The notes: a model not told the origin generated them from the letters alone. A stretch of DNA of 61,259 nt from Candidatus Uhrbacteria bacterium CG10_big_fil_rev_8_21_14_0_10_48_11 (GCA_002793855.1 PFET01000009.1:87749-149007); one strand, 5' to 3'. Positions 1,485 to 61,259 are shown, counted from the first letter of the stretch. Numbers and translations are program-made.

Positions 1485-4400
1485 CTACTGTTGCTGATTG
1501 TTTTGTTCATCCTCCTCACTATCACGATAGTAATAGCGATACCAAAGGTAAAGCAAAATAACCAGAAGGAGAAGCCACCAGTACCAGCAAATGCTAAGGA
1601 TAGCGTAGCACCCCGTACCACCAGTAGAAACGGTAACCGTCGGCAAGGTTTCTTCTTCTGGAGGTGTTACTATTGGTTGCTGGTTATTGCCCCCTTGTGT
1701 TTCTGTACCCTGTACTTCACCGGCAGGTGGGGTCACCTGTCCCGGACCAGTTTCCGCACCCGCAACTTCACCTGGTGGAGTGGGTGTTGGAGCTGGTGTT
1801 CCACCACCGCTTGGTGGAGGTGTCACTACGGTTGGTGGAGGTGTTGAGGTACCGCCACCGCCTCCACCACTCGTTGTTAAGGTAGTGGTTGCTGTTTTGG
1901 TCGTTGTACCACCTGCGGCATTACGGAAACGCGCATATACGGTTTTTAAGCCATCGCCAGACGTAAGCGTCCAAATGGTCGAGCTTGTCGCCGGTATAAA
2001 GCCTGGGGAATCACTAAAGTTCGAGAAATTACTTACTGCAATACCGGTAACATCAACACCGTAGGTAAATAGCAATGTTATGTTTGTGCTGGTAACGTTG
2101 TCACCTTCAGCAATGGCAACCGCTATGGTTGATGCGTCAGGACCAGATGGCGTTATGCCACCACCGCCTCCGCCGCCACCGCCTCCTCCGCCACCGCCTC
2201 CGCCAGTAGAGGTAGAACTAATAGTAACGTCTTGTGTTGTGGTAAGAATACCGTCAGTGGCGCTAAAACTTGCAGTGAACGAACCGACACTCGTTGGCGT
2301 CCAGCTAAAGGCACCGGTCGCTGTGTCGTAGGTCGCCCCAGCGGGCAAAGTCGGAGTAACCGTAACGGTATCCCCGTCAGGATCGGTCGCTATTAAGGTA
2401 AAGGTAATTGCAGTATTCACGGTGCCACTAGCACTGGTTGGGCCACTAAAGACCGGCGCGTGATTGTCGCACTTTACCACTGGATCGAAGCTAACATAGA
2501 ATCCGTCGCTTGCGGTCGTTACGATATTGGCAAACGATATCGTATTTGTTGTCGTGTCCGCAGTGACGTCATCGCTTCCACTTTCCAATGGATAAGTAAC
2601 ATCGCTTTCAACGGTTGTAACGGTTGTGTTAGCAAACTCAATCGTTCCGTTTACTGATTCGCTATTATCTCCACTCTCCAAATTGCCGTACAGAATGACG
2701 CGAAGTTTTCCGTCAATCCTTTGCACTGCAAGTCCCGCTACATCGGCGTACGCCGCAATATCAGGGTCACTAATGGCGACTCCGTTTTCCACAATGGGGA
2801 ACCAAACACCAGGAAGGAGGGCATTGGTGCTTGAGCCAAGGTAAATGACTGGATCAACATTACCCGTACCGGTCTTGCTGGTACTTTCAAAGCCGACGCG
2901 CGCGTAAGTAGTATCAATACAGGAAAGCGCATCACCAGCGGTAATTTCTGTTGAAGCATCAGCATTGAGCGAGCCATCAGTCACACTAAAGGTTGGTGTA
3001 ACGACTTGGGTCGTCGTCGGCAACCAATTAAAGACGCCAGTCGATGGGTCAAAGACTGCGTCAGACGGCAAATCAGTAGCGCTCAAGGTGAGTGCGTCAC
3101 CATCAACGTCGTCGGTCGTAACGGTAAATGACACAAGCGTGTTAGCCGTAGCAGCTACGGTAGCCGGTGCAACAATAGTTGGTGCATGGTTACCGCCACC
3201 GCCGCCTCCCCCACTCGTAATGGTAATGGCCACTGTCTTTGTGGTCGTGTTTGTTCCGTCGGTTGCCTCAAAGGTAGCTGTGTAGTTACCGGTTGAACTT
3301 GGTGTCCACGTAAACAGGCCGGTCGTTTCATCGTAGGTAGCACCACTCGGTAACGTATTATTTAGGGTCAGTGGGTCACCATCCGGATCGCTAATTGTTT
3401 CCGTAAAGGTCAGCTCTGTACCGTCAGTTCCGCTGGCCGTATCCGGACCGTCAATGATCGGCGCTCGGTTACAGGTTAATGAACCTTCGGTAACAATGAA
3501 GGCATCTGCCTTGACGCTCAGTGCTAAGTAGAAACCAACGTTTCCGCTAAGTATACCAACCTGATCTGGAGATTCCATGGCGTTGTCTCCAATATCCGAT
3601 GCCGTACCAACAGCTGAAGTACCACTAAACTCTATGCGTCCGTCTATGCGTTCGTGATTTAGCTGAATACTGCCGGTACTTTCATGGTAACCGTAATCTA
3701 GTACTCGCAACGCACCGTCTTGGCGCTCTATGGCAAGACCGGCAACATTAGCATAAGGGGCAATATCGCTGTCCACAATGGCAGATCCGTCAGCATTCGT
3801 AAGTGGGAACCATGCACCTGATGGCAAGTAGTTGGTATTTTGTCCAGCGTATACCACTGGCGCAAAGTTTCCGGTGCCACTATTCTCGTATCCATTAATC
3901 AATATGCGAGCGTAAGCAATTGGCTCACAAGAAATTTGTTCGGTTACGGTAATGACTGTTTGTGCGCTTACGGCGTCCGTTCCGTCGCTAACACTAAAGG
4001 TTGGTGTAAACGTGCCCGTTGTTTTTGGAAGCCAGTTGAAAATGCCGCTTGCAGGGTCGAACACCGCGCCAGCTGGAAGATCGGTGACGCTCAGCGTCAA
4101 CGGATCTGCATCAGCATCGTCGGCGGTTACGGTAAACTGAACAAGTTTGTTTGCCGTAACATCAACGGTTGCTGGTGCAACAATGGTGGGTGGAGTGTTT
4201 TCAGTTCCGCTCCCACCATCAGTTATCGTGATGGCAACTGTTTTTGAGGTACTGTCGAGCCAATCAGAAGCAGAAAACGTTGCCGAATAGGTACCTACCG
4301 TATCCGGCGTCCAGCTAAAGAGCCCTTTAGTTTGGTCAAAGGTTGCACCTGTTGGTAATGTATCGTCAGTCAAGGTCACTGCATCATTATCCGCATCACT

Positions 4401-7400
4401 TCCGGAAACAATAAAGGTAAGCGCGCTTCCTGCCGGGCCAGTTACCGTACGTGGTGCGTCAATGGTTGGTGGTGTGTTGCATACTGCATCTGACAAGCTA
4501 GTAATGAACCCGTCCGAGATAAAACCAAGAGACATATAAAATGCCACATTGCCGTTCACGATTGCTGCGACATCTTCAGGGTCAAGGGCTCGCACGCCGA
4601 CGTCAGAAGTCGGATGTAATGCCTTTGTACCTCGAAACTCGATGCGGCCATCAATACGTTCCCAGTTTGCTGGCGTTCCGTCTGCAGCCAAGAAACCATA
4701 GTCAACAACTCTTAGCGCACCATTCTGTCGTTCAACAGCCAACCCTGGCACATTTTCATAGCCAGCAATGTCAGGGTCGATAATCCACGATCCGTCGGGA
4801 TTCGTCAGTGGGAACCATTGTCCGGATGCGATAGAGGTTGTCCCTTGTCCCACATAGGAAACTGGCGAAAAATTACCCGTCCCAGAATTCTGATATCCGT
4901 TAATGATAATGCGCGCCTCAGCAACCGGTGTACAAGGTATGGCGTCGCCAATATCGAGCGTAACCTCTTGACTTGCCGGATCGATGCCGTCGGTAGCTGT
5001 CACTGTTACCGTAAAGGTTCCACTTGTACTTGGCGTCCAGGTAAAGATTCCTGTAGACACGTCAAAGGTGGAGCCTGACGGTAGACTGGCTGCGCTTAGG
5101 GTAACCGTGTCGCCGTCGGCATCGGTAGCGCTTGCGGTAAACGTCACGTCAACACCGGCATTGCCGCTAATGGTAGTGCTAGGAGAAATGGTAAGTACGG
5201 GTGGAGTGTTACCGCCACCGCCAGTTCCGGTGTACGTGTTTACAAAGGCGCAGGTAACGTGTCCACCAGCCGCAAGATCAATGTCAGAGGGGTCGTACGT
5301 TGTTGCGCTTCCTTCAACAGTGCAGCTCACCGGTGACAATACCCAGCCATCAACGGAACCTTCCGTAACAGCGTGCGCTCCGGGGAGAAGTCCTGTGTAG
5401 TCATGTGAATCACCATTGCCAAGCATCGTATCGGCTCCGCCATCCAAACTGAAGGCGAACTTGCGATCGCTCGAGCTTGGGTCGGTAGTTTTCGTAACCG
5501 TAATGGTGCCCAGTTGTACGTTGCCGAAATTGCGCTGGGTCTTATTTCCGTGCGAGGTCATGGCAACCGTGTAGCTGCCGTCATCTGCCCCGCCAAGAGT
5601 GCTATCAGCGCTGGTTGGGTCGGTCTGCTGCCAGCCGACTTGCACTTGCTCAGTTACCGTGTAGGTACCAGGTCCAACGACATCAAAGCGATACTTACCC
5701 TCACTGTCCGACGTTGTTATTCTTGGTGCTGAACCAGTATCAAGAACAATGGTCCAGCCAGAAAGCAAAGGTTCCCCAGACTCATCCTCACCGCTAAGGT
5801 TAAGATCGCTGTAGACGTGTCCACTAATACTGCCGTACTCAAAGTTACCAAAATCTTGGTTCGCCAAATCTTCACCGGCGCTGACGGTTACCATATGAAT
5901 ACCCGGATCTGCCGGATAGGTCTGTACCCAAGCCGTCTGTGATTCTTCGCTAATAGTGTAGTTATCAGGGACAACGTTCAAGAACTGATAGAAACCGTTA
6001 CTGTCAGTAGTTGTTGTTACCGCTGGGTCAACACCGTTATCAAGATCGATTACCCAACCTGACAACCCCGGCTCTCCGTCATCCTTTACTCCATTACCAT
6101 TTACGTCCTTAAATTTTACGCCTGAAATCAAAGCAAGTTCGGTGCTGTTGTAGGTACAGACAATTGCTTGCCCTGCCGCCAAATTAAGTGCTGAGGGATC
6201 CTGCCCATCAGTACAGCTTGGAGTTGAATCAAGCTCGAATCCAACAGAAGCCGTACCAACAAGGCTATAAGTGCTCGGTAATAAATCGTCAAAGGTGTAA
6301 GAATTGCTACCGGCAATTGTCGTATTGTGAGTCGAGCTGTCGCTGGTTTTAGTCAAAGCAAAGTTAAAGCTACCGCCGGTGGCAGAATTGACGACCGTGA
6401 TGGAACCACGTTGCGTGTTGGTATAGGCACAACTAATATCCTGTCCAGCCATAAGCGTAATATCGTTACCACTATTGTAGGACGTGCCATCGCAGGTTAC
6501 GTCACCCCTGTCCCATCCGGTTACGTCGGCTTCTGTAACTTGATAGATACCTGGAAGAAGACCACTAAACGTGGCGCTCTCCCCGTCTTTCAGCGTGGCT
6601 GCACCGCTAGATGTCCCAGAAAGAGCAAAAACAAATGCTTGGTCAGAACCGCTTGGGTCGGTAGTTTTAGCAACCGAAATTGAACCCAGCTCCACATTAC
6701 CAAAATCAAGATGCTGAATGTTGCTATCGTCAACAACAACCTGCGTGTATCCGTAGTCACTTGGGCATACAGTACCACTGGTTGGGTACGTCTGCTGAAA
6801 ACCAGTCGGAATTGTTTCGCAGACTGTGTAGCTACCAGCAGGCAAATTACTCGCGCTATACTCGCCGATTGTCCCCGTCTGTACGGTTACGGTAACTGGA
6901 CCAGTCAAGGTAACAGTAACAGCAGACAATGGCATACTGTCATTCTTGATGCCATCGGCATTGAGATCGTTAAATATTGTTCCGCCAATAATGGCGTTGT
7001 CGAGAGGCGGCTCAACACCGTCACCCCAAACCGTAATGTCGTCTAAACGGGTAAAACTAATGTTCCCAGATGGCGCAGTGGTTTCAAAGCGCAAAGTAAA
7101 ATTAGGATTATTGCCTGCTCCTTTCAGCGAACCAAACGATACCCAGTGCAAGAACGAATCATTGGTGTCCTCAGGTGCTTCAAGCTGAAACCACGGCGCA
7201 GAGCCGGTCAAAGAATAGGATGCGGTAAAGAGGTTATCTTGGTTAGACACGCGTCGTGCATAGGCAACGTGAATACCATAAGCACCAACCGTACTAATGG
7301 TTTTGGTTATGGTGTCGTGAACATTCTTCCTTCCATCAAGTTGTACCCCGTGTCCTTTGTCCGGCGTACCATCGTCCGTATAAAAGACGCGATCATTATT

Positions 7401-8201
7401 TCTGGTTCGTTGCTTAACTTTTGCCGTACCTTCAGTAATCCAATTTTCCGGTGGCTTATTTTTGACATCGTCTTCAAAACCGTCGTAAAAAACGGGTGCA
7501 ACCGTGCCGACCACAAAAACGTCATCAACGCCAACATACTCACCGTCAACGCCCCGCATCAAGAACTGAATAGTGATCATGGCGTGGCGGTCGGTATTAT
7601 CAATGGTATAGATATACTGTGTCCGGTCAGGATAGGCATCAGTATGCGGAACCGGGGCGATACTTTCCGCCGTTGGCTCTACAAAAGGTCGATTGTCGAA
7701 AGCATAACGGAAAAGCAGTGAACTCTCTGAACCAGTCGCAAAGTTATCAATTGTTGAAAACTCTACCGATAATGTTTTGTAGCCTCGTGTCGCAACTTCT
7801 CTGCTTGCCGCATCATCTATACCAGTTGCGGTATGACCATTAAGTAGCAGCCCTTCGGTACCAACTGCTCCAACCGCTGCTCCACTCTGAGTGGTTACCG
7901 CTCTTGTCCCGTGGTGCCATGCGCCTTTGACGGGTTCCCAGTTATTGTAACCAAAGTGATGGTTAGATTGTTCAAAATTATCGTAAAAAAGATTATTTCC
8001 CGTCGATGAACTAGCATTGGCTACTTGCGCCGCAAAGGGCATACTTACTGGCCCAAAGCTTCCCAGTACCATCGTCAAAATAGTAAGCCCAGTTGTTATT
8101 TTGCGCGTAAATAATTTAAGTTGCGCCTTGCGACCCACCAACAAACGGCCAGTCGCTCCCCAGAATTTCCCCCCTGTTAATTGCAGTTTAAAGTGAGTCA
8201 T
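1485..8201 (-). CDS. Giant (2238 aa) surface/adhesin-like protein: signal peptide, two N-terminal beta-rich modules, SdrD-B-like and prealbumin-like repeats, putative Ig/cadherin-like repeats, Gly/Pro/Thr linker, C-terminal TM anchor
   Basis: It has three SdrD-B-like starts (IGGTIFNDLNADG, ISGVKFKDVNGNG, ISGHVYSDLNLSG) and repeated N-x-x-P...D-x-D-x-D...LP-x-GA-x-FD...G-x-F-x-W-x-P Ig units. A 16-Gly run lies at 2157-2204, and the protein ends in the TM segment WYWWLLLLVILLYLWY followed by a short charged tail. Confidence 0.85.
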   Translation of the reverse strand: MTHFKLQLTGGKFWGATGRLLVGRKAQLKLFTRKITTGLTILTMVLGSFGPVSMPFAAQVANASSSTGNNLFYDNFEQSNHHFGYNNWEPVKGAWHHGTRAVTTQSGAAVGAVGTEGLLLNGHTATGIDDAASREVATRGYKTLSVEFSTIDNFATGSESSLLFRYAFDNRPFVEPTAESIAPVPHTDAYPDRTQYIYTIDNTDRHAMITIQFLMRGVDGEYVGVDDVFVVGTVAPVFYDGFEDDVKNKPPENWITEGTAKVKQRTRNNDRVFYTDDGTPDKGHGVQLDGRKNVHDTITKTISTVGAYGIHVAYARRVSNQDNLFTASYSLTGSAPWFQLEAPEDTNDSFLHWVSFGSLKGAGNNPNFTLRFETTAPSGNISFTRLDDITVWGDGVEPPLDNAIIGGTIFNDLNADGIKNDSMPLSAVTVTLTGPVTVTVQTGTIGEYSASNLPAGSYTVCETIPTGFQQTYPTSGTVCPSDYGYTQVVVDDSNIQHLDFGNVELGSISVAKTTDPSGSDQAFVFALSGTSSGAATLKDGESATFSGLLPGIYQVTEADVTGWDRGDVTCDGTSYNSGNDITLMAGQDISCAYTNTQRGSITVVNSATGGSFNFALTKTSDSSTHNTTIAGSNSYTFDDLLPSTYSLVGTASVGFELDSTPSCTDGQDPSALNLAAGQAIVCTYNSTELALISGVKFKDVNGNGVKDDGEPGLSGWVIDLDNGVDPAVTTTTDSNGFYQFLNVVPDNYTISEESQTAWVQTYPADPGIHMVTVSAGEDLANQDFGNFEYGSISGHVYSDLNLSGEDESGEPLLSGWTIVLDTGSAPRITTSDSEGKYRFDVVGPGTYTVTEQVQVGWQQTDPTSADSTLGGADDGSYTVAMTSHGNKTQRNFGNVQLGTITVTKTTDPSSSDRKFAFSLDGGADTMLGNGDSHDYTGLLPGAHAVTEGSVDGWVLSPVSCTVEGSATTYDPSDIDLAAGGHVTCAFVNTYTGTGGGGNTPPVLTISPSTTISGNAGVDVTFTASATDADGDTVTLSAASLPSGSTFDVSTGIFTWTPSTSGTFTVTVTATDGIDPASQEVTLDIGDAIPCTPVAEARIIINGYQNSGTGNFSPVSYVGQGTTSIASGQWFPLTNPDGSWIIDPDIAGYENVPGLAVERQNGALRVVDYGFLAADGTPANWERIDGRIEFRGTKALHPTSDVGVRALDPEDVAAIVNGNVAFYMSLGFISDGFITSLSDAVCNTPPTIDAPRTVTGPAGSALTFIVSGSDADNDAVTLTDDTLPTGATFDQTKGLFSWTPDTVGTYSATFSASDWLDSTSKTVAITITDGGSGTENTPPTIVAPATVDVTANKLVQFTVTADDADADPLTLSVTDLPAGAVFDPASGIFNWLPKTTGTFTPTFSVSDGTDAVSAQTVITVTEQISCEPIAYARILINGYENSGTGNFAPVVYAGQNTNYLPSGAWFPLTNADGSAIVDSDIAPYANVAGLAIERQDGALRVLDYGYHESTGSIQLNHERIDGRIEFSGTSAVGTASDIGDNAMESPDQVGILSGNVGFYLALSVKADAFIVTEGSLTCNRAPIIDGPDTASGTDGTELTFTETISDPDGDPLTLNNTLPSGATYDETTGLFTWTPSSTGNYTATFEATDGTNTTTKTVAITITSGGGGGGGNHAPTIVAPATVAATANTLVSFTVTTDDVDGDALTLSATDLPSDAVFDPSTGVFNWLPTTTQVVTPTFSVTDGSLNADASTEITAGDALSCIDTTYARVGFESTSKTGTGNVDPVIYLGSSTNALLPGVWFPIVENGVAISDPDIAAYADVAGLAVQRIDGKLRVILYGNLESGDNSESVNGTIEFANTTVTTVESDVTYPLESGSDDVTADTTTNTISFANIVTTASDGFYVSFDPVVKCDNHAPVFSGPTSASGTVNTAITFTLIATDPDGDTVTVTPTLPAGATYDTATGAFSWTPTSVGSFTASFSATDGILTTTQDVTISSTSTGGGGGGGGGGGGGGGGITPSGPDASTIAVAIAEGDNVTSTNITLLFTYGVDVTGIAVSNFSNFSDSPGFIPATSSTIWTLTSGDGLKTVYARFRNAAGGTTTKTATTTLTTSGGGGGGTSTPPPTVVTPPPSGGGTPAPTPTPPGEVAGAETGPGQVTPPAGEVQGTETQGGNNQQPIVTPPEEETLPTVTVSTGGTGCYAILSICWYWWLLLLVILLYLWYRYYYRDSEEDEQNNQQQ
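2469..4934 (-). repeat. Three copies of a ~152-aa Cys-bracketed domain repeating every ~1005 bp inside the giant protein
   Basis: Copies at 4479-4934, 3471-3929 and 2469-2921 share AR...GTGN...WFP...D-x-DIA-x-Y-x-x-V-x-GLA-x-x-R-x-x-G-x-LRV...G-x-IEF, with a Cys at each end. Confidence 0.85.
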
Positions 8202-24804: not shown

Positions 24805-27800
24805 CTAGTACTGGTTCAATTGACCAGTAACCGGGTAGTAGTCAGTCACGTCCATGACCTGATTGCCAGTGCTGACGTTAAGAATCGTCGCCTGACCTGA
24901 GGTCGTAGTCGCAAATGTACCTGCTGTCGTGGTTCCTGTTGAACCGTACTTACCGTTCACGTCCGTGTAGTCCCATCGTACGCCACCCAATGTTTGTGTG
25001 GAGTCGATTGCCGCTGAGGCACCGAGCCACTGACCCTTACCGGCTTGACCGTCAAGGTAGAGCTGGTAAGTGAGAGGGTTCGTGGTTGTTGCACCCGTAC
25101 GAACCGCAGAGGTGTTTGCCTTGACGACAAAGTCAGTCGAGGATCCTCGTGAGATCGTAATCGGGCTAGAGAGCAAGAACGTTACGACGCTGCCACTTGC
25201 AATGCGAGCTGTTGGCGCGTTAGCTAAGATGTTGTCCGTTCCGTCATTGACGAAGAACGAGACAGTCTTTGCTTGGCCGTTCTGCCAGAGCTGCATGTCG
25301 TAGAGACCAGCGCTGTTAGTACCCGCAGTCAAGATGATGGTACCGGCAGGGACACCACCAGAACAGGTGGTGCTACCGTCAGCAATCGTCACGTACTTGG
25401 ACGTAAGGGCAATAATCGCAGTCTTCGACGTCGTGTTGACACCAGTAAAGGTTTCGAGTGTTGTTGTACCACTACCACTCTTGACCGTCACCGTGTCGCT
25501 CGCTGTGTTACCGGTCGTTACAATGACCTGGTAAAGATCGACTGGCACTGTGGTCTTCTGGCTCACAGTAATGACTCCTGAAGTCGTACACGGATCACTG
25601 TTAGCGGCCACTGAGGTCACTGGTGCCAAGTATGAACCGGAGGTCTTTACCTGAAGAGCATTGATGATGAGATCACGCGTTCCGGTTGCGGCGATGTTGA
25701 AGTCAGCAATGGACTGGCTGGTGGAACCAGCAGTACCGCTTACTGAAGCAACAGTCACGACTGGCTCAACGTTGTGGTTGATGAGCGTATTTGATTGGAA
25801 CTGAAGGTTGGTTGCAGCTGGAGTAATAGTCGCGTCGTAAATGATAACGCGACCTCCTGCTACGGTAACCGTCGCGGCAGTACCCAAAGTGAGTGTCGTG
25901 CTTGTTGGCGCAGCGCTCACAGTAAAGCCGGAACCGGAGTTCGTTTCAGTACCACCCGACGTGACAACACCATCGTTGTTCAAGTCGATAGCAACTTTTT
26001 GACCAACCGTAAATTGAGATGAGTCATTAACCGTCAAGGTCGTTGAGGCCGAGCTCGTTGCGGATGTAACACCACCCGAGGCGCGGACCGTTGTACCTGA
26101 CGAGTTGCCGACGTACTCAAAGTACGTTGGTGCAACGAAAGTTTGCTGACCAGGGGTCTGCACACCGGAACCGGTGGCGGTCGCCTTAACGGTCAAAACC
26201 TTTGCAGAGTCAGACTTGACAACAACAAAACCGAGACCAGTGAATCGAACTTCACCGCTCACAATTTGTGCTGTTGAACCAACCTGAGTTGAACCATTGA
26301 AGAGTTTGACGTCCTGGTAGTTACCTGAACCATTAGTGAAGGCAAGGTAGAGCTTGTTCAGGGTCAAATCTTCTGCGTTGGTGTTCTCAGAGACCTTAAG
26401 GGTTAGGAGCGGAACATCAATTTGGCTCGCGGTCACTACCTGCTGAATTGGCGTACCAGCAGCATCAGACTGGAGAAGAAGCGTACCGTTGGCAGTCATA
26501 GTGATTGACTGACCCTGAGTGGCGGTTGCTGTCTTTGTGGTCTGTGATGATTGTCCAACACCGGCAGTAACGGAAAGTTTGGTTGAGAGGATGTCTGATC
26601 CAGACGTGTACGGGTTGAAAGCCGTTGAGACGTCAGCGTAGACATCGACCTGAACCGTGCCGGAAGCCGGAACGACCGCATTACCCGAGAACGAATCAGT
26701 TGAACCAGCGGTAACGCTTGAGATTGGTGTCCCAAAAGCGGTTTCACCAATCTTCAAGTTTACGTTGCTGATACCTGTTGGTACCGCAGCAGTCGTAAAG
26801 ACAGCTGCCGCAGTACTCGTACCGTTGTTTGTACCAATAAGCACGCCCATCGTAGTCAAGTTAACCCCTTCAGCTGCACCGGCCTGGACGTTGAAGGAAC
26901 CAATCTTGAGATTGGAACCACCCTTAACCAGGTTGGTTGGGTTGTAAGAGGAGTTGCTTGAAATGGTCAAACTACTGGTGTCTACTTGTCGCTGAATACC
27001 AGTAACAGTACTGGTGTCAGTGATGTAGTTGTTCGTTGACACGCGTCGAGCGTAGAAGCCCGTGATACGTACGGCATACGAATCAGTGCTCACCGCTGCT
27101 GAATTAATGTCAACGTAGAACTTCAACTTACCGGTGGTACCGGCCTTGACCGTGTAGTACGTGTTCAAGGTCTGTTGAGTACCGGCAACCCCGCTACCAG
27201 TACCGGTGGTCAACGTCGTCGAACATGACGCTGTACCAGGAGTGCTGTAGTAAATGGTTGCGCCCGTAGCAGATGAAGTATACACCGTTGAATCGTTTCC
27301 ATTGTTGATCTTAACAGTACCTGTCAAACAGGTGCTGCCGTTCGCCAACGCAGTGGAACCGTCTGAGGTAATCTGCCAGGTCAACTTCTGAACTTCAATG
27401 TCTTCACCAAATGCCTTAACGTCAAATGACGCCAAGAGAACGTTGGTAGCACCAGGTGCTACTTTGGCAGACGGTGAATCAGATGAACGGGAGATAATCA
27501 TCGAACCGGTCTTGAACTGAACGTAGTTACCTACGTCAGCGCCAGAACCATCACCAATGGGGAAGGTTGAAGAACCTGCCGCCGTTGGCAAGATGCCGGA
27601 ACCGGTGGACGTACCATAGATCTCAAGGTCGTAGTCGTTCTGCACCGTAAAGTCGAGCGTTCGGCCAGCGCTGTTAGAAACGCCAGGAACGTCTACGGAT
27701 AAGGTGAAGTCTCGCTGCGTACCTTTCGGAATGGTGTATGGACTTGCCGATAAGTCAAAATTGACTTTACCAGAGGTAGCGGTTGCCACGGTGGCAAGAA

Positions 27801-29196
27801 CGTTACCGTTTTGGTCCTTCAAACGAATGTTGGTGTAATCACCGTCAGCGGCAGAACCATTGTTGAAGACCGTCAGGTGGTTCAATGTGGCACCCTCTTG
27901 ACCGGTTGTTTCAGCAATGCGGAACTTCTGCACGTCAAGGTTGGTTGAACCTTGGTCAATCTGTGTTGGTGACGTACTTGTTCCACCAGCCAAAGTTTGT
28001 GAGGTGATGGTAACGGTGGCAACGCTACCCGAGGTCGGGATGAGCGAGAAGCCGTTACCCGACACTGGGAAACTACCGCTCACAGTTGCAGTTGTTTTAA
28101 CATCAGCTGCTGAGAGAACGGCGATGGCGTAGGTACCAGACAATGACGTGCTTGCGGCAATGTTTGTCTTTGCCCAAACGGAGACGGTCTGACCAGCCGG
28201 AACCACCAAGGGGTCATTCGGGAAAAGTACGTTAGCCTTGGTGTCGCCGAAAGTAACAACGTTACCGTAGCGTCGACCAGTGGCGTCGTAGATACCGACA
28301 CCCGAGAAGGTTGAATCTTGTGACAAACCTTGACGCGTCAAAACGATACCCGTGACGTTCACGGAACCATCGGCTGAAGCAGTCAAGTTGAGCTTTGTCG
28401 ACTTGTTGTAGGCTGTACCCGCTGCCTGGATGCCAGGAGCTGCCGTATCAGCGGCCAGAGCGACTGTCAAACCAGAACCGCCTGGCGTTGATGTTGAAGC
28501 ACCGCCGGTGAGGTTCCAGATGCTTGTGTCGGCGGAATTAATCTGTGAACCGGTGCTAAGTGCGTTAAACACACTGTCGTCGGCGACCAAAACATCCTTC
28601 GACTGAAATTTGTTAGCCGTAAAACCAGCGGCTGTCACCATGCGCTTTGAGGAACCGTCGACGTAGTAAACGTCGTTGGAGCTTGCCTGCTTGATGAGCG
28701 AACCGGTGGGGTAAGAATTTGTACTGATTGAAGAACCTAGGGTGTAGTTCACAAAGAACTCATCTGGTACGTCATCAACCAGTGATGCCCAGTTTGACCC
28801 ATAAAGAGTGGTCGCAATAGACTCGTTTTCAATCCAGCGCAGTGTGCCACCTGGCTCAACTGCGTAGACATGCGGGTCGGTTGTGATCTTTACGAGACGC
28901 GTACCTGGGCGGTACGTGATGTTTCCCTTAATGTGGTAGGACTGCATTTCGGATTGTGACACTGTCACAACGCTCGAAAAGTCAGAGTACCAAGTAAAGT
29001 ACGTCTTGCTGTTTGGGAAGACGTAGCGTAGGCCGTCTGTCCCGAGGTAGTAAACCGAGGTGCTCCCATCCATCTTGATGAGGTCACCGGCGGATGCCGC
29101 TCGCGTAGCGAGCGGTGCAAAACCGGCACCGATTGACCAAAGAATGGTCGTGGCGGTAACCGCAATGCTTACACCTCGCTTAATAATATTACTCAT
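24805..29196 (-). CDS. Large S-layer-like/surface protein (~1463 aa), CPR type
   Basis: A signal peptide ending ATRA is followed by the N-terminal domain GDLIK...VYY...DG-x-RYVFPN-x-KTY-x-TWY-x-DFS, which I associate with Parcubacteria surface proteins. The rest is Ser/Thr/Gly-rich beta repeats. It has a strong terminator, and the start is ATG 29196. Confidence 0.8.
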   Translation of the reverse strand: MSNIIKRGVSIAVTATTILWSIGAGFAPLATRAASAGDLIKMDGSTSVYYLGTDGLRYVFPNSKTYFTWYSDFSSVVTVSQSEMQSYHIKGNITYRPGTRLVKITTDPHVYAVEPGGTLRWIENESIATTLYGSNWASLVDDVPDEFFVNYTLGSSISTNSYPTGSLIKQASSNDVYYVDGSSKRMVTAAGFTANKFQSKDVLVADDSVFNALSTGSQINSADTSIWNLTGGASTSTPGGSGLTVALAADTAAPGIQAAGTAYNKSTKLNLTASADGSVNVTGIVLTRQGLSQDSTFSGVGIYDATGRRYGNVVTFGDTKANVLFPNDPLVVPAGQTVSVWAKTNIAASTSLSGTYAIAVLSAADVKTTATVSGSFPVSGNGFSLIPTSGSVATVTITSQTLAGGTSTSPTQIDQGSTNLDVQKFRIAETTGQEGATLNHLTVFNNGSAADGDYTNIRLKDQNGNVLATVATATSGKVNFDLSASPYTIPKGTQRDFTLSVDVPGVSNSAGRTLDFTVQNDYDLEIYGTSTGSGILPTAAGSSTFPIGDGSGADVGNYVQFKTGSMIISRSSDSPSAKVAPGATNVLLASFDVKAFGEDIEVQKLTWQITSDGSTALANGSTCLTGTVKINNGNDSTVYTSSATGATIYYSTPGTASCSTTLTTGTGSGVAGTQQTLNTYYTVKAGTTGKLKFYVDINSAAVSTDSYAVRITGFYARRVSTNNYITDTSTVTGIQRQVDTSSLTISSNSSYNPTNLVKGGSNLKIGSFNVQAGAAEGVNLTTMGVLIGTNNGTSTAAAVFTTAAVPTGISNVNLKIGETAFGTPISSVTAGSTDSFSGNAVVPASGTVQVDVYADVSTAFNPYTSGSDILSTKLSVTAGVGQSSQTTKTATATQGQSITMTANGTLLLQSDAAGTPIQQVVTASQIDVPLLTLKVSENTNAEDLTLNKLYLAFTNGSGNYQDVKLFNGSTQVGSTAQIVSGEVRFTGLGFVVVKSDSAKVLTVKATATGSGVQTPGQQTFVAPTYFEYVGNSSGTTVRASGGVTSATSSASTTLTVNDSSQFTVGQKVAIDLNNDGVVTSGGTETNSGSGFTVSAAPTSTTLTLGTAATVTVAGGRVIIYDATITPAATNLQFQSNTLINHNVEPVVTVASVSGTAGSTSQSIADFNIAATGTRDLIINALQVKTSGSYLAPVTSVAANSDPCTTSGVITVSQKTTVPVDLYQVIVTTGNTASDTVTVKSGSGTTTLETFTGVNTTSKTAIIALTSKYVTIADGSTTCSGGVPAGTIILTAGTNSAGLYDMQLWQNGQAKTVSFFVNDGTDNILANAPTARIASGSVVTFLLSSPITISRGSSTDFVVKANTSAVRTGATTTNPLTYQLYLDGQAGKGQWLGASAAIDSTQTLGGVRWDYTDVNGKYGSTGTTTAGTFATTTSGQATILNVSTGNQVMDVTDYYPVTGQLNQY

Positions 29197-29401
29197 GTTT
29201 CGTGGTTTCCTTTTAGTTACCTTCTCTAAAATTGAGAAGGATTTGCTAAGAGTTAACCATGAAACTCTGCGCATAGCAGATCGACCTTTGTTCCGTGGTC
29301 CGGCTTAACAGCCAGCCAAGAACAACCGATGTCTGATCGGCTGTACTGGGTTGAACGTTAAACATGAGCATGGAGTCTGCCATGGTAAGCGCGTTAGTAA
29401 A

Positions 29402-34733: not shown

Positions 34734-34960
34734 CTTTAGGTGCCGCACCAAGCGCGACACTCAATGCGCCGCTTACAAGCGGGAGGTTAATAGTAGACAG
34801 AGAGAACTCCGGAAGAAAAAGACACAACCTGCTGGTGACGCGAGCTGGTTTTTTGCGCTACGGTGATGATATTCGTTGTCGCAGTCGCACTGTCCCGTAG
34901 CAAGGTTCGGCATCACCACAACATTTTCGGCGTGCATACGCACGCCGAGGGAGTAAGGAA

Positions 34961-35191
34961 GTGAAACAACCGCCCCAGTGGAAGATAAATAACGCCCGGC
35001 GCGGCATCGAAAGCCCGCTGCTCACTATCGCACTGGTCGTACTGCTGAGCAGTATGGCAGCGCTTTCGATGGCGAAGTGGAACACCCTCGGCTCCGAGGA
35101 AGCGGTTCGCTTCGCCAAACTGGCGCTTGGCATACCTACGTTGCTCATTGCCATCGTCTCTGCCGTTCGGGCAGAGAGAAGGAGGTCATGA
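34961..35191 (+). CDS. Small 2-TM protein (array member B)
   Basis: GTG start after GAGGGAGTAAGGAA, two hydrophobic segments and an ATGA overlap with the next ORF. Confidence 0.6.
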   Translation: MKQPPQWKINNARRGIESPLLTIALVVLLSSMAALSMAKWNTLGSEEAVRFAKLALGIPTLLIAIVSAVRAERRRS

Positions 35192-35427
35192 TGACCAGTC
35201 ATCAATGGGAAGAAATTCCCTACGAAACGAAATTCTCAATTACGTACACCGTCGCGTTCTTCGTGATCGCAGAACTGCTGGTGTGGGCCATCCTTGGATG
35301 GGCGCTCGCTTTCGCGCTCTTCCTCTGTGGTGTTGTTTTGGCGGCCTTGCTCGTTCTCTTTCTGTCGATGGCAGGACTCACGAAGGAAGCGGAAAGGAAT
35401 AAAGATGATATGGACGACGGCGCTTGA
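35188..35427 (+). CDS. Small 2-TM protein (array member C, 79 aa)
   Basis: AGAAGGAGG SD before ATG 35188, an ATGA overlap and a long hydrophobic hairpin. Confidence 0.65.
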   Translation: MMTSHQWEEIPYETKFSITYTVAFFVIAELLVWAILGWALAFALFLCGVVLAALLVLFLSMAGLTKEAERNKDDMDDGA

Positions 35428-35521
35428 AAAGATTCGGGGAGTAGCAACAACAATAGCGTTCGTTTGCGTTTTTGCTGCCCTGTACGTCATTCAACGTTTC
35501 ACTTTGACCAGCAAAAAATGA
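35405..35521 (+). CDS. 1-TM peptide (array member D, 38 aa)
   Basis: GAAAGGA SD before ATG 35405, sequence MIWTTALEKIRGVATTIAFVCVFAALYVIQRFTLTSKK, and an ATGA overlap with the next ORF. Confidence 0.5.
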   Translation: MIWTTALEKIRGVATTIAFVCVFAALYVIQRFTLTSKK

Positions 35522-35739
35522 GGGAACAGAAGATGATGAGGCAAGAAAAAACGGTAAGTTACGGAGGGCGAATGTTGATACTAGCCCCAACCACCGCGGG
35601 CATCGTTGGTGCACTGCTGACGATTCCCTTCTTTGGATGGAGGGCAGCAAGCCTGCTCTTCGTCGGTGGCATCACCGTCGGCCTGACCGCAGCGGTTCTT
35701 CTCGGACTACTCGGAAATAACGAGGAGCACAAGGCATGA
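35518..35739 (+). CDS. Small 2-TM protein (array member E, 73 aa)
   Basis: ATGA overlaps at both ends. It shares GW-x-x-A-x-x-LF-x-x-G with member C. Confidence 0.65.
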   Translation: MREQKMMRQEKTVSYGGRMLILAPTTAGIVGALLTIPFFGWRAASLLFVGGITVGLTAAVLLGLLGNNEEHKA

Positions 35740-35906
35740 GGAGAATTAGGGGACTTCAGTCAAGGGTTGCGCTGTCGGTCAGCGCAGTCTGTTTTCTCGC
35801 TCTGTCCGCGTTCGGCGCGGATGGGCCGAGAGCAGGAATCCATGTGCTCATTTTCTTCGGATTTCTCTTCGCATTGGCGTGGGGCCTCTCGAAGGCAATG
35901 CGCTAG
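35736..35906 (+). CDS. Small 2-TM protein (array member F, 56 aa)
   Basis: Not in the track. GAGGAG SD, ATGA overlap, sequence MRRIRGLQSRVALSVSAVCFLALSAFGADGPRAGIHVLIFFGFLFALAWGLSKAMR. Confidence 0.6.
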   Translation: MRRIRGLQSRVALSVSAVCFLALSAFGADGPRAGIHVLIFFGFLFALAWGLSKAMR

Positions 35907-35915
35907 GGAGAAAGT

Positions 35916-36137
35916 ATGATGAAATCTGTTTTTGTACTGCCGATAGTGGCGGGACTACCAGTGCCTCTCTTGCTTGTTGCTGCACTGCTCGGTGCCTATG
36001 CAGCGCAGAACAGCACGGAGTGGGCAGAGATGCTCCACCTGTGGAGCTTCTGGGGCGCAATTGCTTCTTTCTGTGGGGTGCTTATCTGCGGCCTCTTTGC
36101 TGAAGACATGAGCATAGAGGTGCAGAAGGAGGACTAA
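35916..36137 (+). CDS. Small 2-TM protein (array member G, 73 aa)
   Basis: AGGGAG SD, two hydrophobic segments and a TAATG overlap with the next ORF. Confidence 0.65.
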   Translation: MMKSVFVLPIVAGLPVPLLLVAALLGAYAAQNSTEWAEMLHLWSFWGAIASFCGVLICGLFAEDMSIEVQKED

Positions 36138-36355
36138 TGAAAGAATTTGAAGATCTCACATGGAAGGGGGGGCGCCGCCTCATGAGGCAATGTCTTCTCT
36201 ATGCGGGACTCTTCGCCATCGTAGCCATCTTGGCACTCCCCTTATCGCATGGAGGAGTGAGCATCGTATCTAAAATGGCAACGATGGCGTGCCTGGCATC
36301 GGCGTGGGCGGCCATGGTCTGCCGTTCGATCTGGCCACCGAGGTCACAACGATGA
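36137..36355 (+). CDS. Small 2-TM protein (array member H, 72 aa)
   Basis: AAGGAGG SD, TAATG coupling and two hydrophobic segments. Confidence 0.65.
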   Translation: MKEFEDLTWKGGRRLMRQCLLYAGLFAIVAILALPLSHGGVSIVSKMATMACLASAWAAMVCRSIWPPRSQR

Positions 36356-36385
36356 CCTCGGTGAAACACAAGGAGGACAGTTCGT

Positions 36386-36433
36386 AAAACCGGCGGTGTC
36401 GCAGCTCAAAAAAGAGTTGCACCCGCCGGTTTT
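36386..36433 (+). terminator. Hairpin terminator closing the array
   Basis: Outer stem AAAACCGGCGG ... CCGCCGGTTTT with an inner stem. Confidence 0.7.
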
Positions 36434-36472
36434 CATATACGCTCCATTCTCTTCACGCCTGCCCAACATACA

Positions 36473-36504
36473 ACATTCCAACATTCTTGAGAATGTTGGA
36501 ATGT
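36473..36504. repeat. 32-bp palindrome, copy 1
   Basis: ACATTCCAACATTCT-TG-AGAATGTTGGAATGT, with perfect 15-bp arms. Confidence 0.95.
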
Positions 36505-36614
36505 CATTTTTTTAAAATTAATCCATTGACGGCGCAGCTTACAAATGTTAAAAAAAGGTATCCGTTTCCTCCTGTCCGCCCTTGTTATTGCGGAAACAAA
36601 AAAGGAGGTGTGTC

Positions 36615-36863
36615 GTGCACACAAGAGGAAGAAAGGAAAAAATCAAGCGCCAGTCAGTCGTCCTGCGACGGGACGGCTACGACCCCAGCAAAAGAGCGGC
36701 GATTATACTCGGCGGAGTAATCGCCATGTCGATCGTGGGGGTACTGCTGATGCTCTACCCCCATGCGACGACCACGGTTCTCGTCGTGATAATTTTGGCC
36801 GGCCTCGCAACGCGCGTCTTCTGCGCCGTCAGCCGCTCCGGCATCTTCCGTTCGATATCGTAA
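36615..36863 (+). CDS. Small 2-TM protein between palindrome copies 1 and 2 (82 aa)
   Basis: Full SD AAAGGAGGTG before GTG 36615, a basic N-terminus and two TM segments. A 12-bp hairpin follows at 36888-36921. Confidence 0.65.
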   Translation: MHTRGRKEKIKRQSVVLRRDGYDPSKRAAIILGGVIAMSIVGVLLMLYPHATTTVLVVIILAGLATRVFCAVSRSGIFRSIS

Positions 36864-36994
36864 TCGACAGGAAGAGGCAGCCGACAAGGAGGAGCGCAGT
36901 GGTCACCCGCTGCGCTCCTCCCCCCTCTCGTCACTTCTTCACTGCCGAAGTAAAAATTTAGGAAAAAAAATTACCTCACCCCCACCCCAATCAA

Positions 36995-37026
36995 TCATTC
37001 CAACATTCTTGAGAATGTTGGAATGA
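36995..37026. repeat. 32-bp palindrome, copy 2
   Basis: TCATTCCAACATTCT-TG-AGAATGTTGGAATGA has an identical 30-bp core and compensatory T/A ends. It lies 2 nt after the wHTH stop codon. Confidence 0.95.
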
Positions 37027-37028
37027 CT

Positions 37029-37316
37029 TTACTGCAGCGCTCGAAACATTTTCAAAAAACGAACAACTATTCTTCCATAAGGCGAGAGCGAATGCTCTAC
37101 AAATTTACCGCGATACTTTTTATTGAGCAAACCAGACTGAACAAGGCGACGCGTGTGTTCACTTATCGTTTTACTATTCGCACCAATGGCTGCAACCAAC
37201 GAATCGAGGGTAATACCCTCCTTACGAGCTACGAGAAATAAAATATCAATCCGGTAATGATTTGCAACTCCCTTCAGGTGTCGTTCTATTTGCTTGGCTG
37301 TTTTTTGTTTTTTCAT
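37029..37316 (-). CDS. Winged helix-turn-helix (ArsR-like) DNA-binding protein
   Basis: KGVANHYRIDILFLV...ITLDSLV...NSKTISEHTRRLVQSGLLNKKYRG. The start is ATG 37316 (MKKQK) after TATACT-N6. Confidence 0.8.
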   Translation of the reverse strand: MKKQKTAKQIERHLKGVANHYRIDILFLVARKEGITLDSLVAAIGANSKTISEHTRRLVQSGLLNKKYRGKFVEHSLSPYGRIVVRFLKMFRALQ

Positions 37317-37330
37317 ATTTTTAGTATACC

Positions 37331-37362
37331 ACATTCCAACATTCTTGAGAATGTTGGAATGT
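37331..37362. repeat. 32-bp palindrome, copy 3 (overlaps the wHTH promoter)
   Basis: Identical to copy 1 and located immediately upstream of the TATACT -10 at 37323-37328. Confidence 0.95.
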
Positions 37363-52861: not shown

Positions 52862-54106
52862 CTAACAATGCTCCCCTGCTACAAAACCGGTAGTCCAACA
52901 AAGCTGTAGACTATAGCCACCCGACGGACGGTCGATATTGAGCATATCTCCAACCAGATACAGCCGAGGCACCAGCCGGGACTCCATTGTCTTAAAATTA
53001 ACCTCTTTCAGGTTCACCCCGCCCGAAGACACAATCGCTTTGTCCGCACCAAGTAACTTCTCGACAGATAGCGGGGTGTGCTTAAAAAGAATGACAAGTT
53101 TTTTTCTTGATTCACTACGGACGCTATGGTTTGGCGTTTCGTTTTCAATAGCTGCTAGTCTTAAAAGTACTGGCACTAGTGACGACGGTACTAACTTGCC
53201 AAGCACGTTTTTAATTTTCTTATTTATTTCCGCAATAAGTAGTGCCTGCAGCTGAGACTTAAGTATGGTATGATCTACGCCGGGAAATAAATCTAAGGCA
53301 ATAGTTACCTCTCCATATTTTAAAAGTTCTCCTACCTCTTTACTCATATGAAGCACTGTTGGCCCGCTAATACCGACATGGGTAAACAACAGCTTCCCCT
53401 TATAAGCCTCCTGTTTATGTCGGTTTTGAAAAGTGGTGAGTTTTATGTCACTCAATGTTACGCCAGCAAGTTTTTTCACCCACGCATCTTTGATAGCTAT
53501 AGGCACAAGTGAAAAATCATTATCAATAATGTTATGACCCAGTTTTTTTGCTATTTGAAACCCATCGCCAGTTGCTCCTGTTTCTGGTCAAGATAGACCA
53601 CCCGTGGCAATAATGCAAGACTTCGCAAACACAGTGCTACCATCTTTTAGTAGTACTTCAAACTGTTTATCTGTCACCGCAAGATCTGTAACCGTTGCCT
53701 CTGTCCTTACTTGTACGTCGCCCTTTTTTATATACTCCACAAGTACATTCCAAACCGATACGGCTTTATTCGATGCGGGGAAAATTCTTCCCTCGTTCTC
53801 TTCTTTTGTCGCCATGCCGCGACTGTGAAAAAAATTTAGCGCATCTTCGGTGTTAAATTGTGCAAAAGTGGAAAATAAAAATTTATCATTACCTTTGTAT
53901 TTCCCCAGCATGGTGCGGACCTCTTTATTATTTGTCACATTACAGCGTCCACCGCCGGTGATAAGTAACTTTTTACCAAGGGATGCATTTTTTTCAAGGA
54001 GCACAACAGCAAAACCACGCTCTGCGGCGCGTCCAGCGGCCATCATGCCAGCGGGGCCGCCGCCAATAACCGCAACATCAAAAAGTTTATGCCTGGTCTC
54101 TTTCAT
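52862..54106 (-). pseudogene. HI0933/BaiN family flavoprotein interrupted by one in-frame TGA
   Basis: The two track ORFs are one frame: GGGPAG...KKLLITGGGRCNVTN...ATGGLS*PETGATGDG...LLFTH-x-GISGP...SGGYSLQLCW. The TGA is at 53588-53590. Confidence 0.85.
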
Positions 54107-59279: not shown

Positions 59280-59438
59280 CCAAAGGCCGATCCACCTCTG
59301 GCGGAAACTCCACGATGCCCTCTCTTTTGTATAGCAAAAAACCTGCCTCCGCCATCCGCCAACTGGCGGAGGCGGATCAGGCAGGTTTTTTGCTGCAGGG
59401 CATCGTGGAGTTTCCGCCAGAGGTGGATCGGCCTTTGG
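59280..59438. repeat. 159-bp nested inverted repeat containing REP-like TCCGCC-N3/4-GGCGGA units
   Basis: Perfect 42-bp outer arms (59280-59321 and 59397-59438), 16-bp inner arms (59333-59348 and 59379-59394) and a central nested palindrome. Confidence 0.9.
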
Positions 59439-59552: not shown

Positions 59553-59626
59553 TGGCAGGGGCGGTAGGAATCGAACCTACGACTTAGGTTTTGGAGACCC
59601 GCATGATACCACTTCACCACGCCCCC
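59553..59626 (-). tRNA. tRNA-Trp (anticodon CCA), CCA encoded, 4-bp anticodon stem
   Basis: GGGGGCG/CGCCCCT acceptor stem (G1-U72), G73, anticodon arm CGGGT-CTCCAAA-ACCTA with a C27-A43 mismatch, and T-arm GTAGG-TTCGATT-CCTAC. Confidence 0.96.
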
Positions 59627-60300: not shown

Positions 60301-61191
60301 CTAAGGACAGGCGACGTCCCTTTGTTTAAGATTACGTTTAGCTTCCATGACAACAATTTGTTTAGAATCCTCTCGTAAAGCGCACAGAATGTCTGCCGGA
60401 AGGTTCGGATTAAATGTAAGGTTACTGCGAACTATTTCGTCTTCGCTCTTACTCAGTACAAGCAAGATATCTATGGGTGTGCTCGGATTTACGGCAAGAT
60501 CATAGGCAACATACCCATCGCCATTTTGATTAGTACTATTATGTTCATACAGTAACCGCAGTGACTCCATGGGTGTTTGAGGGTTGCGCGCAACATTATG
60601 AAGAATTCTCAAACGATTATCCTTAGCGAGATCACCCAAAATATCACTTAGAGTATTTTCGTTAGCCGCAACTGCGGAGAGGAGGACGCTATCGTAACCT
60701 GATAACGGAGAATGATAAAGTTTTACTATCTCGTCAGGACGCGTTGCGGCGCGAACTCGCTCGATGTTCGTAAAACGGTAGCATTCGACAACACCAACTA
60801 CAACAAACAAAGTGAGGATAACAAGTGTGATCATCTTCAAACGAGTAGGATGATCATCGATGTTTCCGTTGAACCACGTTCTTGTTAACAGCAACGTGGC
60901 GATCGCCCATTCAACCACATAAGCAAATAGCGCGAGTGGCAGACCAGACAAGGGAATATTTACTATGCCAAGAATTCTTGTTGAGTTCGTTGAAACAAGA
61001 ATTAAATAAACGGTGTAAAATGCAAAGGATAGGAAAACAAGAGCGGCAAAAATAATGGCAGTGTTGTGAACTTTCTTTCGAATTGTCGTCTCTCGCTTAC
61101 GGTAGATGACAACGCCGACCAGAGAGCCAAACACAACAGCTGGCAGGATGAAGTATCCGAGAACAAATGGGTTAAAAAAAGAAAAAAGCAT
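60301..61191 (-). CDS. Membrane protein with C-terminal HEAT/LRV-like helical repeats
   Basis: Four TM segments followed by repeats of the form (V/L)A-x-N-x-x-TP-x-x-x-L-x-x-L. Confidence 0.7.
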   Translation of the reverse strand: MLFSFFNPFVLGYFILPAVVFGSLVGVVIYRKRETTIRKKVHNTAIIFAALVFLSFAFYTVYLILVSTNSTRILGIVNIPLSGLPLALFAYVVEWAIATLLLTRTWFNGNIDDHPTRLKMITLVILTLFVVVGVVECYRFTNIERVRAATRPDEIVKLYHSPLSGYDSVLLSAVAANENTLSDILGDLAKDNRLRILHNVARNPQTPMESLRLLYEHNSTNQNGDGYVAYDLAVNPSTPIDILLVLSKSEDEIVRSNLTFNPNLPADILCALREDSKQIVVMEAKRNLKQRDVACP

Positions 61192-61259
61192 GTTCGGCAA
61201 AGAAATTATTTTCTGGAGTGTCTTTACGACTTCACTCGAACCTATTTTATCAAAAATTC

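Follow-up and report, generated by a model that had tools for sequence, protein, structure and literature searches.

A palindrome bracketing an ArsR-like winged-helix gene is a predicted operator that is also dispersed through genomes of candidate phyla radiation bacteria

Three palindromes around a wHTH gene

The DNA analyzed here, called the window, is a stretch of 61,259 nucleotides from Candidatus Uhrbacteria bacterium CG10_big_fil_rev_8_21_14_0_10_48_11 (GCA_002793855.1 PFET01000009.1:87749-149007). It contains three copies of a short palindrome, P1, P2, and P3. P2 and P3 bracket a gene for an ArsR/SmtB-like winged helix-turn-helix (wHTH) protein, and P1 lies on the far side of an open reading frame (ORF) that is predicted to encode two transmembrane (2-TM) helices (Table 1).

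Each copy contains the same 30-bp perfect palindrome, CATTCCAACATTCTTGAGAATGTTGGAATG (36474–36503, 36996–37025, and 37332–37361), which had 0 matches in 100 dinucleotide-preserving shuffles. One further complementary pair extends each copy to a 32-mer; P1 and P3 have A/T at these outermost positions, and P2 has T/A. A first reading of the sequence alone (the original prediction) had described 32-bp repeats with compensatory ends in the second copy, in the order P1, Shine-Dalgarno-led 2-TM ORF, P2, wHTH gene, P3, and the coordinates agree with this description. All three copies are in the same direct orientation, with TG at the center on the + strand and a 14-2-14 geometry, and neither a further copy nor a half-site was found elsewhere in the 61-kb window. 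Seven contigs, drawn from JGI and ENA assemblies made independently, carry the three-palindrome layout (99.9–100% identity). Because these independently assembled contigs share it, P1–P3 are not an assembly artifact, which the original prediction had considered as a possible refutation.

The wHTH gene starts at ATG 37316 (MKKQKT) according to homologue alignments, which ruled out the upstream ATG at 37334 as the start. Its product matches Pfam HTH_5 (25.6 bits against a gathering cutoff of 22), scores 34.7 bits with the NCBIfam ArsR/SmtB model (under the cutoff of 55), and has CadC, ArsR, HlyU, and SmtB as PDB sequence matches (E 0.005–0.08), the closest being CadC 3f72 (E 0.005). Judged by these matches, it is a distant ArsR/SmtB-family member. 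The 95-aa sequence contains no cysteines, and no conserved α5 metal-ligand set was noticed in the family by eye, a feature for which no systematic check was made; in having neither Cys nor a recognizable metal site, the protein is similar to HlyU and PagR, the non-metal members of ArsR/SmtB. Homologues at ∼70% identity number 2062 and are spread across the candidate phyla radiation (CPR). An AlphaFold2 model of the wHTH protein has helices at residues 7–32, 37–44, 48–60, and 79–94, in the expected order, and the recognition helix (about residues 48–60, SKTISEHTRRLVQ) carries Ser52 and Val59. The mean predicted local distance difference test score (pLDDT) of this model is 49.5; its input alignment was shallow (∼70% identical), the wing was not modeled, and no dimer was predicted.

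P3 overlaps the −35 region and the spacer of the wHTH promoter: the −35-like TTCTCA sits within P3, and P3 ends 3 nt before the −10 in a TG-extended arrangement (TGG-TATACT) that is followed by 6 nt and the ATG. With the −10 only 6 nt from the ATG, transcription should begin at the start codon, so the wHTH mRNA is predicted to be leaderless. At the other end of the gene, the center of P2 is 336 bp (∼32 helical turns) from that of P3, and on the wHTH strand, P2 forms a hairpin of −26.5 kcal/mol. When the copies are folded as RNA, they have energies of about −19 kcal/mol (z about −5), including −19.3 kcal/mol (z −5.6) for P1, which is followed on the + strand by CATTTTTTTA and has a terminator-like score (14-bp stem plus T-run). 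Neither P2 nor P3 was classed as an intrinsic terminator by stem plus T-run. An Rfam scan of the window found two tRNAs only.

Table 1. Positions of the palindromes and adjacent features in the window (types A and B are defined in the text)
Feature	Position	Strand	Remarks
P1	36473–36504		Solo B-type copy, ACATTCCAACATTCT TG AGAATGTTGGAATGT
2-TM ORF, 82 aa	36615–36863	+	Starts at GTG, 6 nt after AAGGAGG; TM helices predicted
P2	36995–37026		32-mer beginning 2 nt past the wHTH stop; family-wide 3′ flanking copy
ArsR/SmtB-like wHTH gene, 95 aa	37029–37316	−	Pfam HTH_5 match
wHTH promoter	37317–37351	−	−35-like TTCTCA at 37351–37346, 17-nt spacer, −10 TATACT at 37328–37323
P3	37331–37362		Overlaps the wHTH promoter; center 31 nt before the ATG

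A conserved gene-plus-palindrome module

Two sets of related loci were analyzed: 80 metagenome loci anchored on the protein (wHTH identity 67–74%) and 120 loci anchored on the palindrome. The exact window palindrome is missing from most of the protein-anchored loci, and a related palindrome, AACATCCTTACAAACT-NN-AG(AAT/TTT)GTAAGGATGTT, occurs in this set at both flanking positions. With a detector that has a background of 0.02 hits per kb in shuffled DNA, an upstream palindrome was found at 89 of the 103 genes with room for one; in 51 of these 89, the ATG follows its center at a distance of 33 nt (31 nt in the window). Downstream, 83 of the 102 genes with room have a palindrome, centered +15 to +18 past the stop codon in 61 of the 83 (+18 in the window). 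The center-to-center spacing is 334–337 bp in 35 of 63 distinct modules, a range that includes the value in the window. The module is compact (∼335 bp) and is kept across Patescibacteria (CPR) and in some Verrucomicrobiota and Kiritimatiellia.

When all ORFs near the palindrome were clustered, the wHTH was the sole recurrent gene family (23 of the 120 listed loci, at a median distance of 44 nt), and the next family was present at 5 or fewer of these 120. Together with the counts of flanking copies, this is a strong association of palindrome and wHTH gene, a co-occurrence that the original prediction had named as a point to check.

The recognition helix and the half-site covary across the family. 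Type A proteins have the helix KT[IL]GEHTRRLYQ, with Gly, and at least one AGTTT or AGTAT half-site (60 of 60 genes); type B proteins have KTISEHTRRLVQ, with Ser, and AGAAT only, arranged as ATTCT-NN-AGAAT (20 of 21 genes). The covarying residue occupies the KT[IL]xEH position, near the start of the helix that the low-confidence model predicts at 48–60. The window wHTH has ∼70% identity to type A and 54–65% to type B, yet it has Ser52, Val59, and B-type AGAAT operators. A second such case is the wHTH of locus L067, which is A-like (∼62% identity), yet has Ser and AGAAT sites. From this pattern, a switch of half-site preference between AGTTT and AGAAT is predicted at Gly/Ser52.

Paralogous wHTH modules occur together at two loci. 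One of these, L182, has modules at 288–572 and 1454–1720, one A-type and one B-type, each with an operator of its own type; the other, L200, has modules at 530 and 4001.

Homologous promoters read palindrome, TGTATAAT, 6 nt, ATG. At A-type loci, the palindrome center is the −35, TTGAGA, followed 16 nt on by TATAAT (usually TG-extended), 6 nt, and the ATG. A-type operators near the promoter are imperfect palindromes and are conserved as such (AAACTTGAGAAT); AACATCCTTACAAACTGGAGTTTGTAAGGATGTT is an A-type operator sequence. A perfect hairpin is therefore unneeded at the promoter, which fits protein binding. The two palindromes of one locus carry common lineage-specific quirks. Short B-type genes end within their 3′ palindrome, which contains the stop codon (TTC TAA), and the opposite arm has a matching G-to-A change in four loci and keeps the G (a G-U wobble) in one. 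This matching of the stop-codon change in the other arm points to selection for a transcript with an RNA hairpin at its 3′ end.

Based on these results, we propose, with a probability of roughly 0.7, that the palindrome is the operator of the ArsR-like wHTH protein that it brackets. The original prediction had put forward wHTH binding to the palindrome and autoregulation, and the predicted direct binding and autorepression are well supported by the ∼100 bracketed loci and the helix/half-site covariation; the autorepression model rests mainly on this covariation and on the promoter overlap. A wHTH dimer on P3 would occlude the promoter and so repress its own gene. P2 would be a second operator, at a spacing from P3 that is compatible with looping, and as RNA, it could form a 3′ hairpin that ends or stabilizes the wHTH transcript. 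P1 would be a third, solo site, probably bound by the same protein, and with its T-run, it could terminate + strand transcription.

Copies of the palindrome between and within genes

Scanning one genome per GTDB species with the 22-nt core CCAACATTCTNNAGAATGTTGG gave at least 120 stretches, with 129 copies among those listed. The hosts among the matches listed include many CPR/Patescibacteria lineages (Saccharibacteria, Paceibacteria and Parcubacteria groups, Doudnabacteria, and others), 11 metagenome-assembled genomes (MAGs) of Verrucomicrobiota, Kiritimatiellia, or Lentisphaerae, and three odd bins. Outside the core, positions 1–5 pair in 120–128 of the 129 listed copies, positions 6–7 pair above shuffles (97 versus 78 and 63 versus 36), and pairing is gone from position 8. 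Offsets 1, 2, 4, 5, 6, and 7 show symmetric changes that compensate each other, and the double changes outside the core are T-A to A-T (4), T-A to C-G (6), C-G to T-A (11), and A-T to T-A (5). The element is ∼34–38 bp long, with the consensus A-n-AACATTCCAACATTCT-NN-AGAATGTTGGAATGTT-n-T and flanks that read AACAT...ATGTT; its central dinucleotide is free among the listed copies (GC 55, CA 31, TG 26, TA 14).

In 1.27 Mb of loci, all 34 perfect A-type palindromes and 46 of 50 hybrid forms lie beside a wHTH gene. Most B-type copies are solo, with 11 solo copies in 394 kb of protein-anchored loci that were not chosen for B-type copies; B-type alone disperses. From the fraction of listed stretches holding a wHTH gene (23 of 120), and assuming one such gene per genome and randomly sampled stretches, roughly five palindrome loci per genome are estimated. 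Many intergenic solo copies exactly span the gap of convergent genes as ATAAC...GTTAT or AAAAC...GTTTT (L057, L115, L036, L049, and L102), many elsewhere are flanked by AAAA/TTTT, and the orientation of intergenic copies (convergent 19, divergent 12, tandem 44) is near random expectation. At L082, two copies enclose one ORF, and at L058 and L085, the palindrome centers differ or are flipped between the two copies of the locus.

The 22-nt core had 0 matches in the 2.9 million viral contigs of IMG/VR, and a phage or plasmid vector was rejected on this absence. No transposase, recombinase, or REP-associated tyrosine transposase (RAYT; REP, repetitive extragenic palindromic) family was recurrent in the 200 related loci (120 + 80). 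The original prediction had stated that no recombinase is in the window, and the scanned window ORFs had no Pfam match to a transposase or recombinase domain (1485–8201, 24805–29274, and 60301–61257 were among the ORFs left out). There are no target-site duplications, the flanks being complementary and not direct repeats. A DNA-uptake sequence was also rejected, as the density is too low (about one copy per 30–90 kb, with no further copy in the 61-kb window).

About 21 of the 129 listed copies (about a sixth) lie well within long recognizable genes and are read through in frame. The host genes encode TsaD and MnmA (two copies each, at different sites), TrmD, PGK, PurL, class II fructose-bisphosphate aldolase (FBA; twice, at the same site), GltX, UvrC, MurC, PrmC, three glycosyltransferases, an FAD oxidase, a dihydroorotase, and a 6PGDH-like protein. 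The reading frame is HSNIL[E/Q/K]NVGM, with no stops, in 20 intragenic copies and FQHSAECWN in one real case. When compared with solved structures, the palindrome peptide forms an insertion, of 8 aa in FBA and of 10 aa in MnmA. Among the 120 closest FBA homologues, the states of this loop (EYAR...ISIEGELG) range from a 7-aa loop without an insertion to the intact peptide, with decayed versions (HTNNLKYVGM and HSNILENARMM) and a second frame (NIPTFSRMLEC), and these states are intermixed even between proteins that are >80% identical. In two orthologous pairs, the intragenic palindrome is identical at 28 of 30 positions, the center alone differing, whereas the 150-nt coding flanks are 55–75% identical; since the palindrome is conserved beyond its flanks, this DNA is selected or kept homogeneous.

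Other palindrome-like in-frame inserts are present at the FBA loop in different CPR lineages (KSDFPREVRLP, KFSIFNFQF, LQPTTYNLQP, KIQNSKFQIQ, and ESRIKNKESRI), which suggests that CPR coding sequences contain short palindromic elements of additional families. TspO genes are recurrent neighbors of the module, and about 5 of 14 TspO ORFs carry an in-frame palindrome in the TM2-TM3 loop (near the wHTH module at L161, L172, L181, L196, and L095). The palindrome thus recurs in the FBA and TspO loops of many lineages. The insert at L161/L172 and L181 is HPYILENxRM, with CCTTAC arms as in A-type operators, and the wHTH operators of L181 itself share these arms. In Kiritimatiellia, Verrucomicrobiota, and Lentisphaerae MAGs, the same AT-rich palindrome occurs with a 55–60% identical wHTH (L027, L044, L046, L007, L016, and L105), on contigs of up to 126 kb, and the copy at L044 is in frame in PrmC. 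These occurrences suggest transfer of the palindrome and wHTH between CPR and Planctomycetes-Verrucomicrobia-Chlamydiae (PVC) bacteria.

In the window, P1 lies 522 bp from P2, and a GC-rich hairpin (36385–36432) lies just before it. The 2-TM ORF is convergent with the wHTH gene, has a promoter-like TTGACG-17-TAAAAA ∼23 nt downstream of P1 that P1 does not overlap, and is followed by a second GC-rich hairpin (36888–36921). It matches no Pfam or NCBIfam family and has no homologue except itself among 5.8 × 10⁹ proteins, so a conserved membrane-peptide cassette is unlikely. The original prediction of wHTH control over adjacent membrane-peptide genes is not supported, since the ORF is an orphan, P1 is off its promoter, and the neighboring array is palindrome-free. 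A decayed TspO gene between P1 and P2 was ruled out, the sole match being the palindrome-encoded peptide. The block at ∼34800–36950 has a GC content of 53–54% (∼45% in adjacent DNA) and contains small + strand ORFs with predicted membrane helices, no family matches, and no flanking palindromes.

Two other features of the window were recorded. A 42-nt perfect inverted repeat (59280–59438; arms 59280–59321 and 59397–59438) encloses a nested GC-rich hairpin (∼59338–59392) with A- and T-runs and is ∼115 nt from a tRNA-Trp gene (59553–59626, minus strand). An HI0933-like flavoprotein gene (52865–54106, minus strand) is present as two ORFs with one in-frame TGA (∼53587–53589) within the conserved ATGGxS-x-PxTGxTGDG motif; recoding, a sequencing error, or a pseudogene could each account for this.

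Alternative explanations and relation to known systems

Several observations weigh against the proposal that the wHTH protein has the palindrome as its operator. The AlphaFold2 model is too poor to confirm the fold or a dimer, and P2 lacks a U-tract when read on the wHTH strand. The distance from the upstream palindrome to the ATG varies from 23 to 92 nt in B-type loci, so promoter occlusion is less certain for B-type generally. The Gly/Ser split mostly tracks two clades, with the window and L067 as the main independent cases, so independent Gly/Ser changes are few. Within single genomes, solo copies show symmetric covariation at their outer positions (CGGAT..ATCCG and AAAAC..GTTTT in UBA6102), a pattern that a dimeric protein leaves unexplained and that points to hairpin selection or arm-to-arm conversion. 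In addition, nothing accounts for the entry of a 30–36 bp site into coding sequences.

In an alternative explanation, the palindrome is primarily a selfish dispersed element that resembles the Rickettsia palindromic elements (RPEs), P1–P3 are three insertions, the wHTH is at most a taming or tolerating factor of the host or the element, and gene regulation is incidental. We regard this as unlikely, although it would accommodate the spread of the exact 22-nt core over at least 120 GTDB stretches from many CPR classes and PVC MAGs, the intragenic copies (∼21 of 129 listed) with their nearly constant HSNILxNVGM frame, the 8–10-aa insertions relative to solved FBA and MnmA, the fast turnover and decayed copies at the FBA loop of proteins >80% identical, and the dispersal of B-type alone, with 34 of 34 perfect A-type copies beside the gene. 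Bracketing, fixed spacing, and helix/half-site covariation are, however, unexpected from random insertion, and the copy number is low. There is no associated transposase, RAYT, or recombinase, there are no target-site duplications, and the viral contigs contain no match; moreover, the 28 of 30 identity of intragenic copies within flanks of 55–75% argues for selection or homogenization, not decay. The original prediction held that a scattered REP with no wHTH association would refute it: the copies are indeed scattered, but they are strongly linked to the wHTH gene. Its idea of insertion sites fared similarly, as dispersal between genes and in frame within genes was found, but single-gene cassettes are not supported.

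It is improbable that the palindromes function as nucleic-acid hairpins only, either as intrinsic terminators or as REP-like stabilizers of mRNA with no specific protein. The terminator score of P1, the folding of every copy (∼−19 kcal/mol, z ∼−5), the AAAAC...GTTTT solo copies that fill convergent-gene gaps, and the symmetric compensatory changes favor such a function, but the sequence itself is conserved across phyla beyond its pairing, the promoter-proximal copy is upstream of the transcription start and often imperfect, orientation classes are about random, terminators inside genes would harm, and the covariation with the wHTH helix is left unexplained. We give very little credence to the cassette alternative of the original prediction, read here as site-specific recombination sites (attC-, dif-, or lox-like, 12-6-12) that would bound a P1-P2 cassette with the 2-TM ORF and a P2-P3 cassette with the wHTH gene. 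No tyrosine or serine recombinase was found on the scanned window ORFs or recurrently in the 200 related loci, the wHTH alone is consistently bracketed, the neighboring small-ORF array has no palindromes, and solo copies in essential genes cannot be cassette junctions. The direct orientation of P1–P3, the quirks common to both copies of a locus (as for direct repeats), and the bracketed ORF at L082 are in its favor, but centers differ or flip at L058 and L085, and among the seven contigs with the exact wHTH, some of which end ∼90 nt beyond P2, there is no circular or empty-site allele and no alternative junction.

As a predicted operator and regulator, the module is like the ArsR/SmtB autorepressors (SmtB, CadC, HlyU, and PagR), in which a ∼100-aa HTH_5 wHTH protein has a palindromic operator over its own promoter. 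Operators of this family are 12-2-12 inverted repeats. The window module differs in its conserved second operator copy right 3′ of the gene, its predicted leaderless mRNA, the dispersal of its operator even into coding sequences, and its unusual conservation across CPR (∼70% protein identity and a near-exact DNA site). IS1 InsA is a small HTH protein that binds terminal repeats on either side of its gene, with the promoter in one of them. The module shares this logic (a ∼90-aa protein, predicted sites that bracket the gene, and a promoter in the upstream site), but it has no transposase frame or catalytic domain, and its flanking sites, instead of being terminal inverted repeats, repeat a self-complementary sequence in direct orientation.

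Among dispersed elements, RPEs were reportedly described by Ogata et al. in 2000 as "Selfish DNA in protein-coding genes of Rickettsia" and have in common with the CPR element in-frame insertion into housekeeping genes, a preferred frame, tolerated loops, and no known transposase. The CPR element differs in being 34–38 bp long (RPEs, ∼100–150 bp), of unrelated sequence, and of low copy number, in having CPR and PVC hosts, and in being tied to the gene of a DNA-binding protein whose predicted operator it is. REP elements and bacterial interspersed mosaic elements are likewise 20–40-bp hairpin repeats, often 3′ of genes or between convergent genes, with terminator or stabilizer potential; the palindromes described here differ from REPs in being perfect, in having intragenic copies, and in being few per genome. 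REP elements carry a GTAG or CGTC tag (PMC3733652), whereas the window-type palindrome has neither tag and no recurrent RAYT gene in the 120 + 80 loci. Integron attC and dif-module cassettes differ in having a cognate recombinase, none of which was found on the scanned ORFs or recurrently in related loci, and the array in the window is siteless. Terminal inverted repeats with a target-site duplication, as in miniature inverted-repeat transposable elements, do not occur here, and no parent insertion sequence was found.

If the palindrome is the wHTH operator, the dispersed B-type copies between and inside genes make up a genome-wide set of very strong predicted sites. The intragenic copies may act as roadblocks or may merely be tolerated. 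The regulator might promote copying of the palindrome, for example by stabilizing extruded hairpins in replication or repair. We advance only tentatively the idea that the operator-gene-operator module could be an undescribed genetic element, whose best operator would multiply without a transposase, move between CPR and PVC bacteria, and form a genome-wide roadblock or organizing network under a single tiny regulator. Regulator-operator logic of this kind is known; what appears new is the strict two-copy bracket and the coupling of an operator to an RPE-like element, and a full-text literature search found no description of this palindromic element or wHTH regulator, CPR included.

To our knowledge, CPR bacteria have very few regulators, and we know of next to nothing about their gene control. 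The module offers a testable regulator-operator pair that is conserved over much of CPR, with a predicted specificity switch and defined genomic sites, and genetic tools are available for cultivable Saccharibacteria (PMC10633639). Short palindromic in-frame insertions of several families in CPR proteins could mislead annotation and alignments. The parallel is to the long-unexplained Rickettsia palindromic elements; here, an identifiable protein partner makes the origin and function of such an element approachable by experiment.

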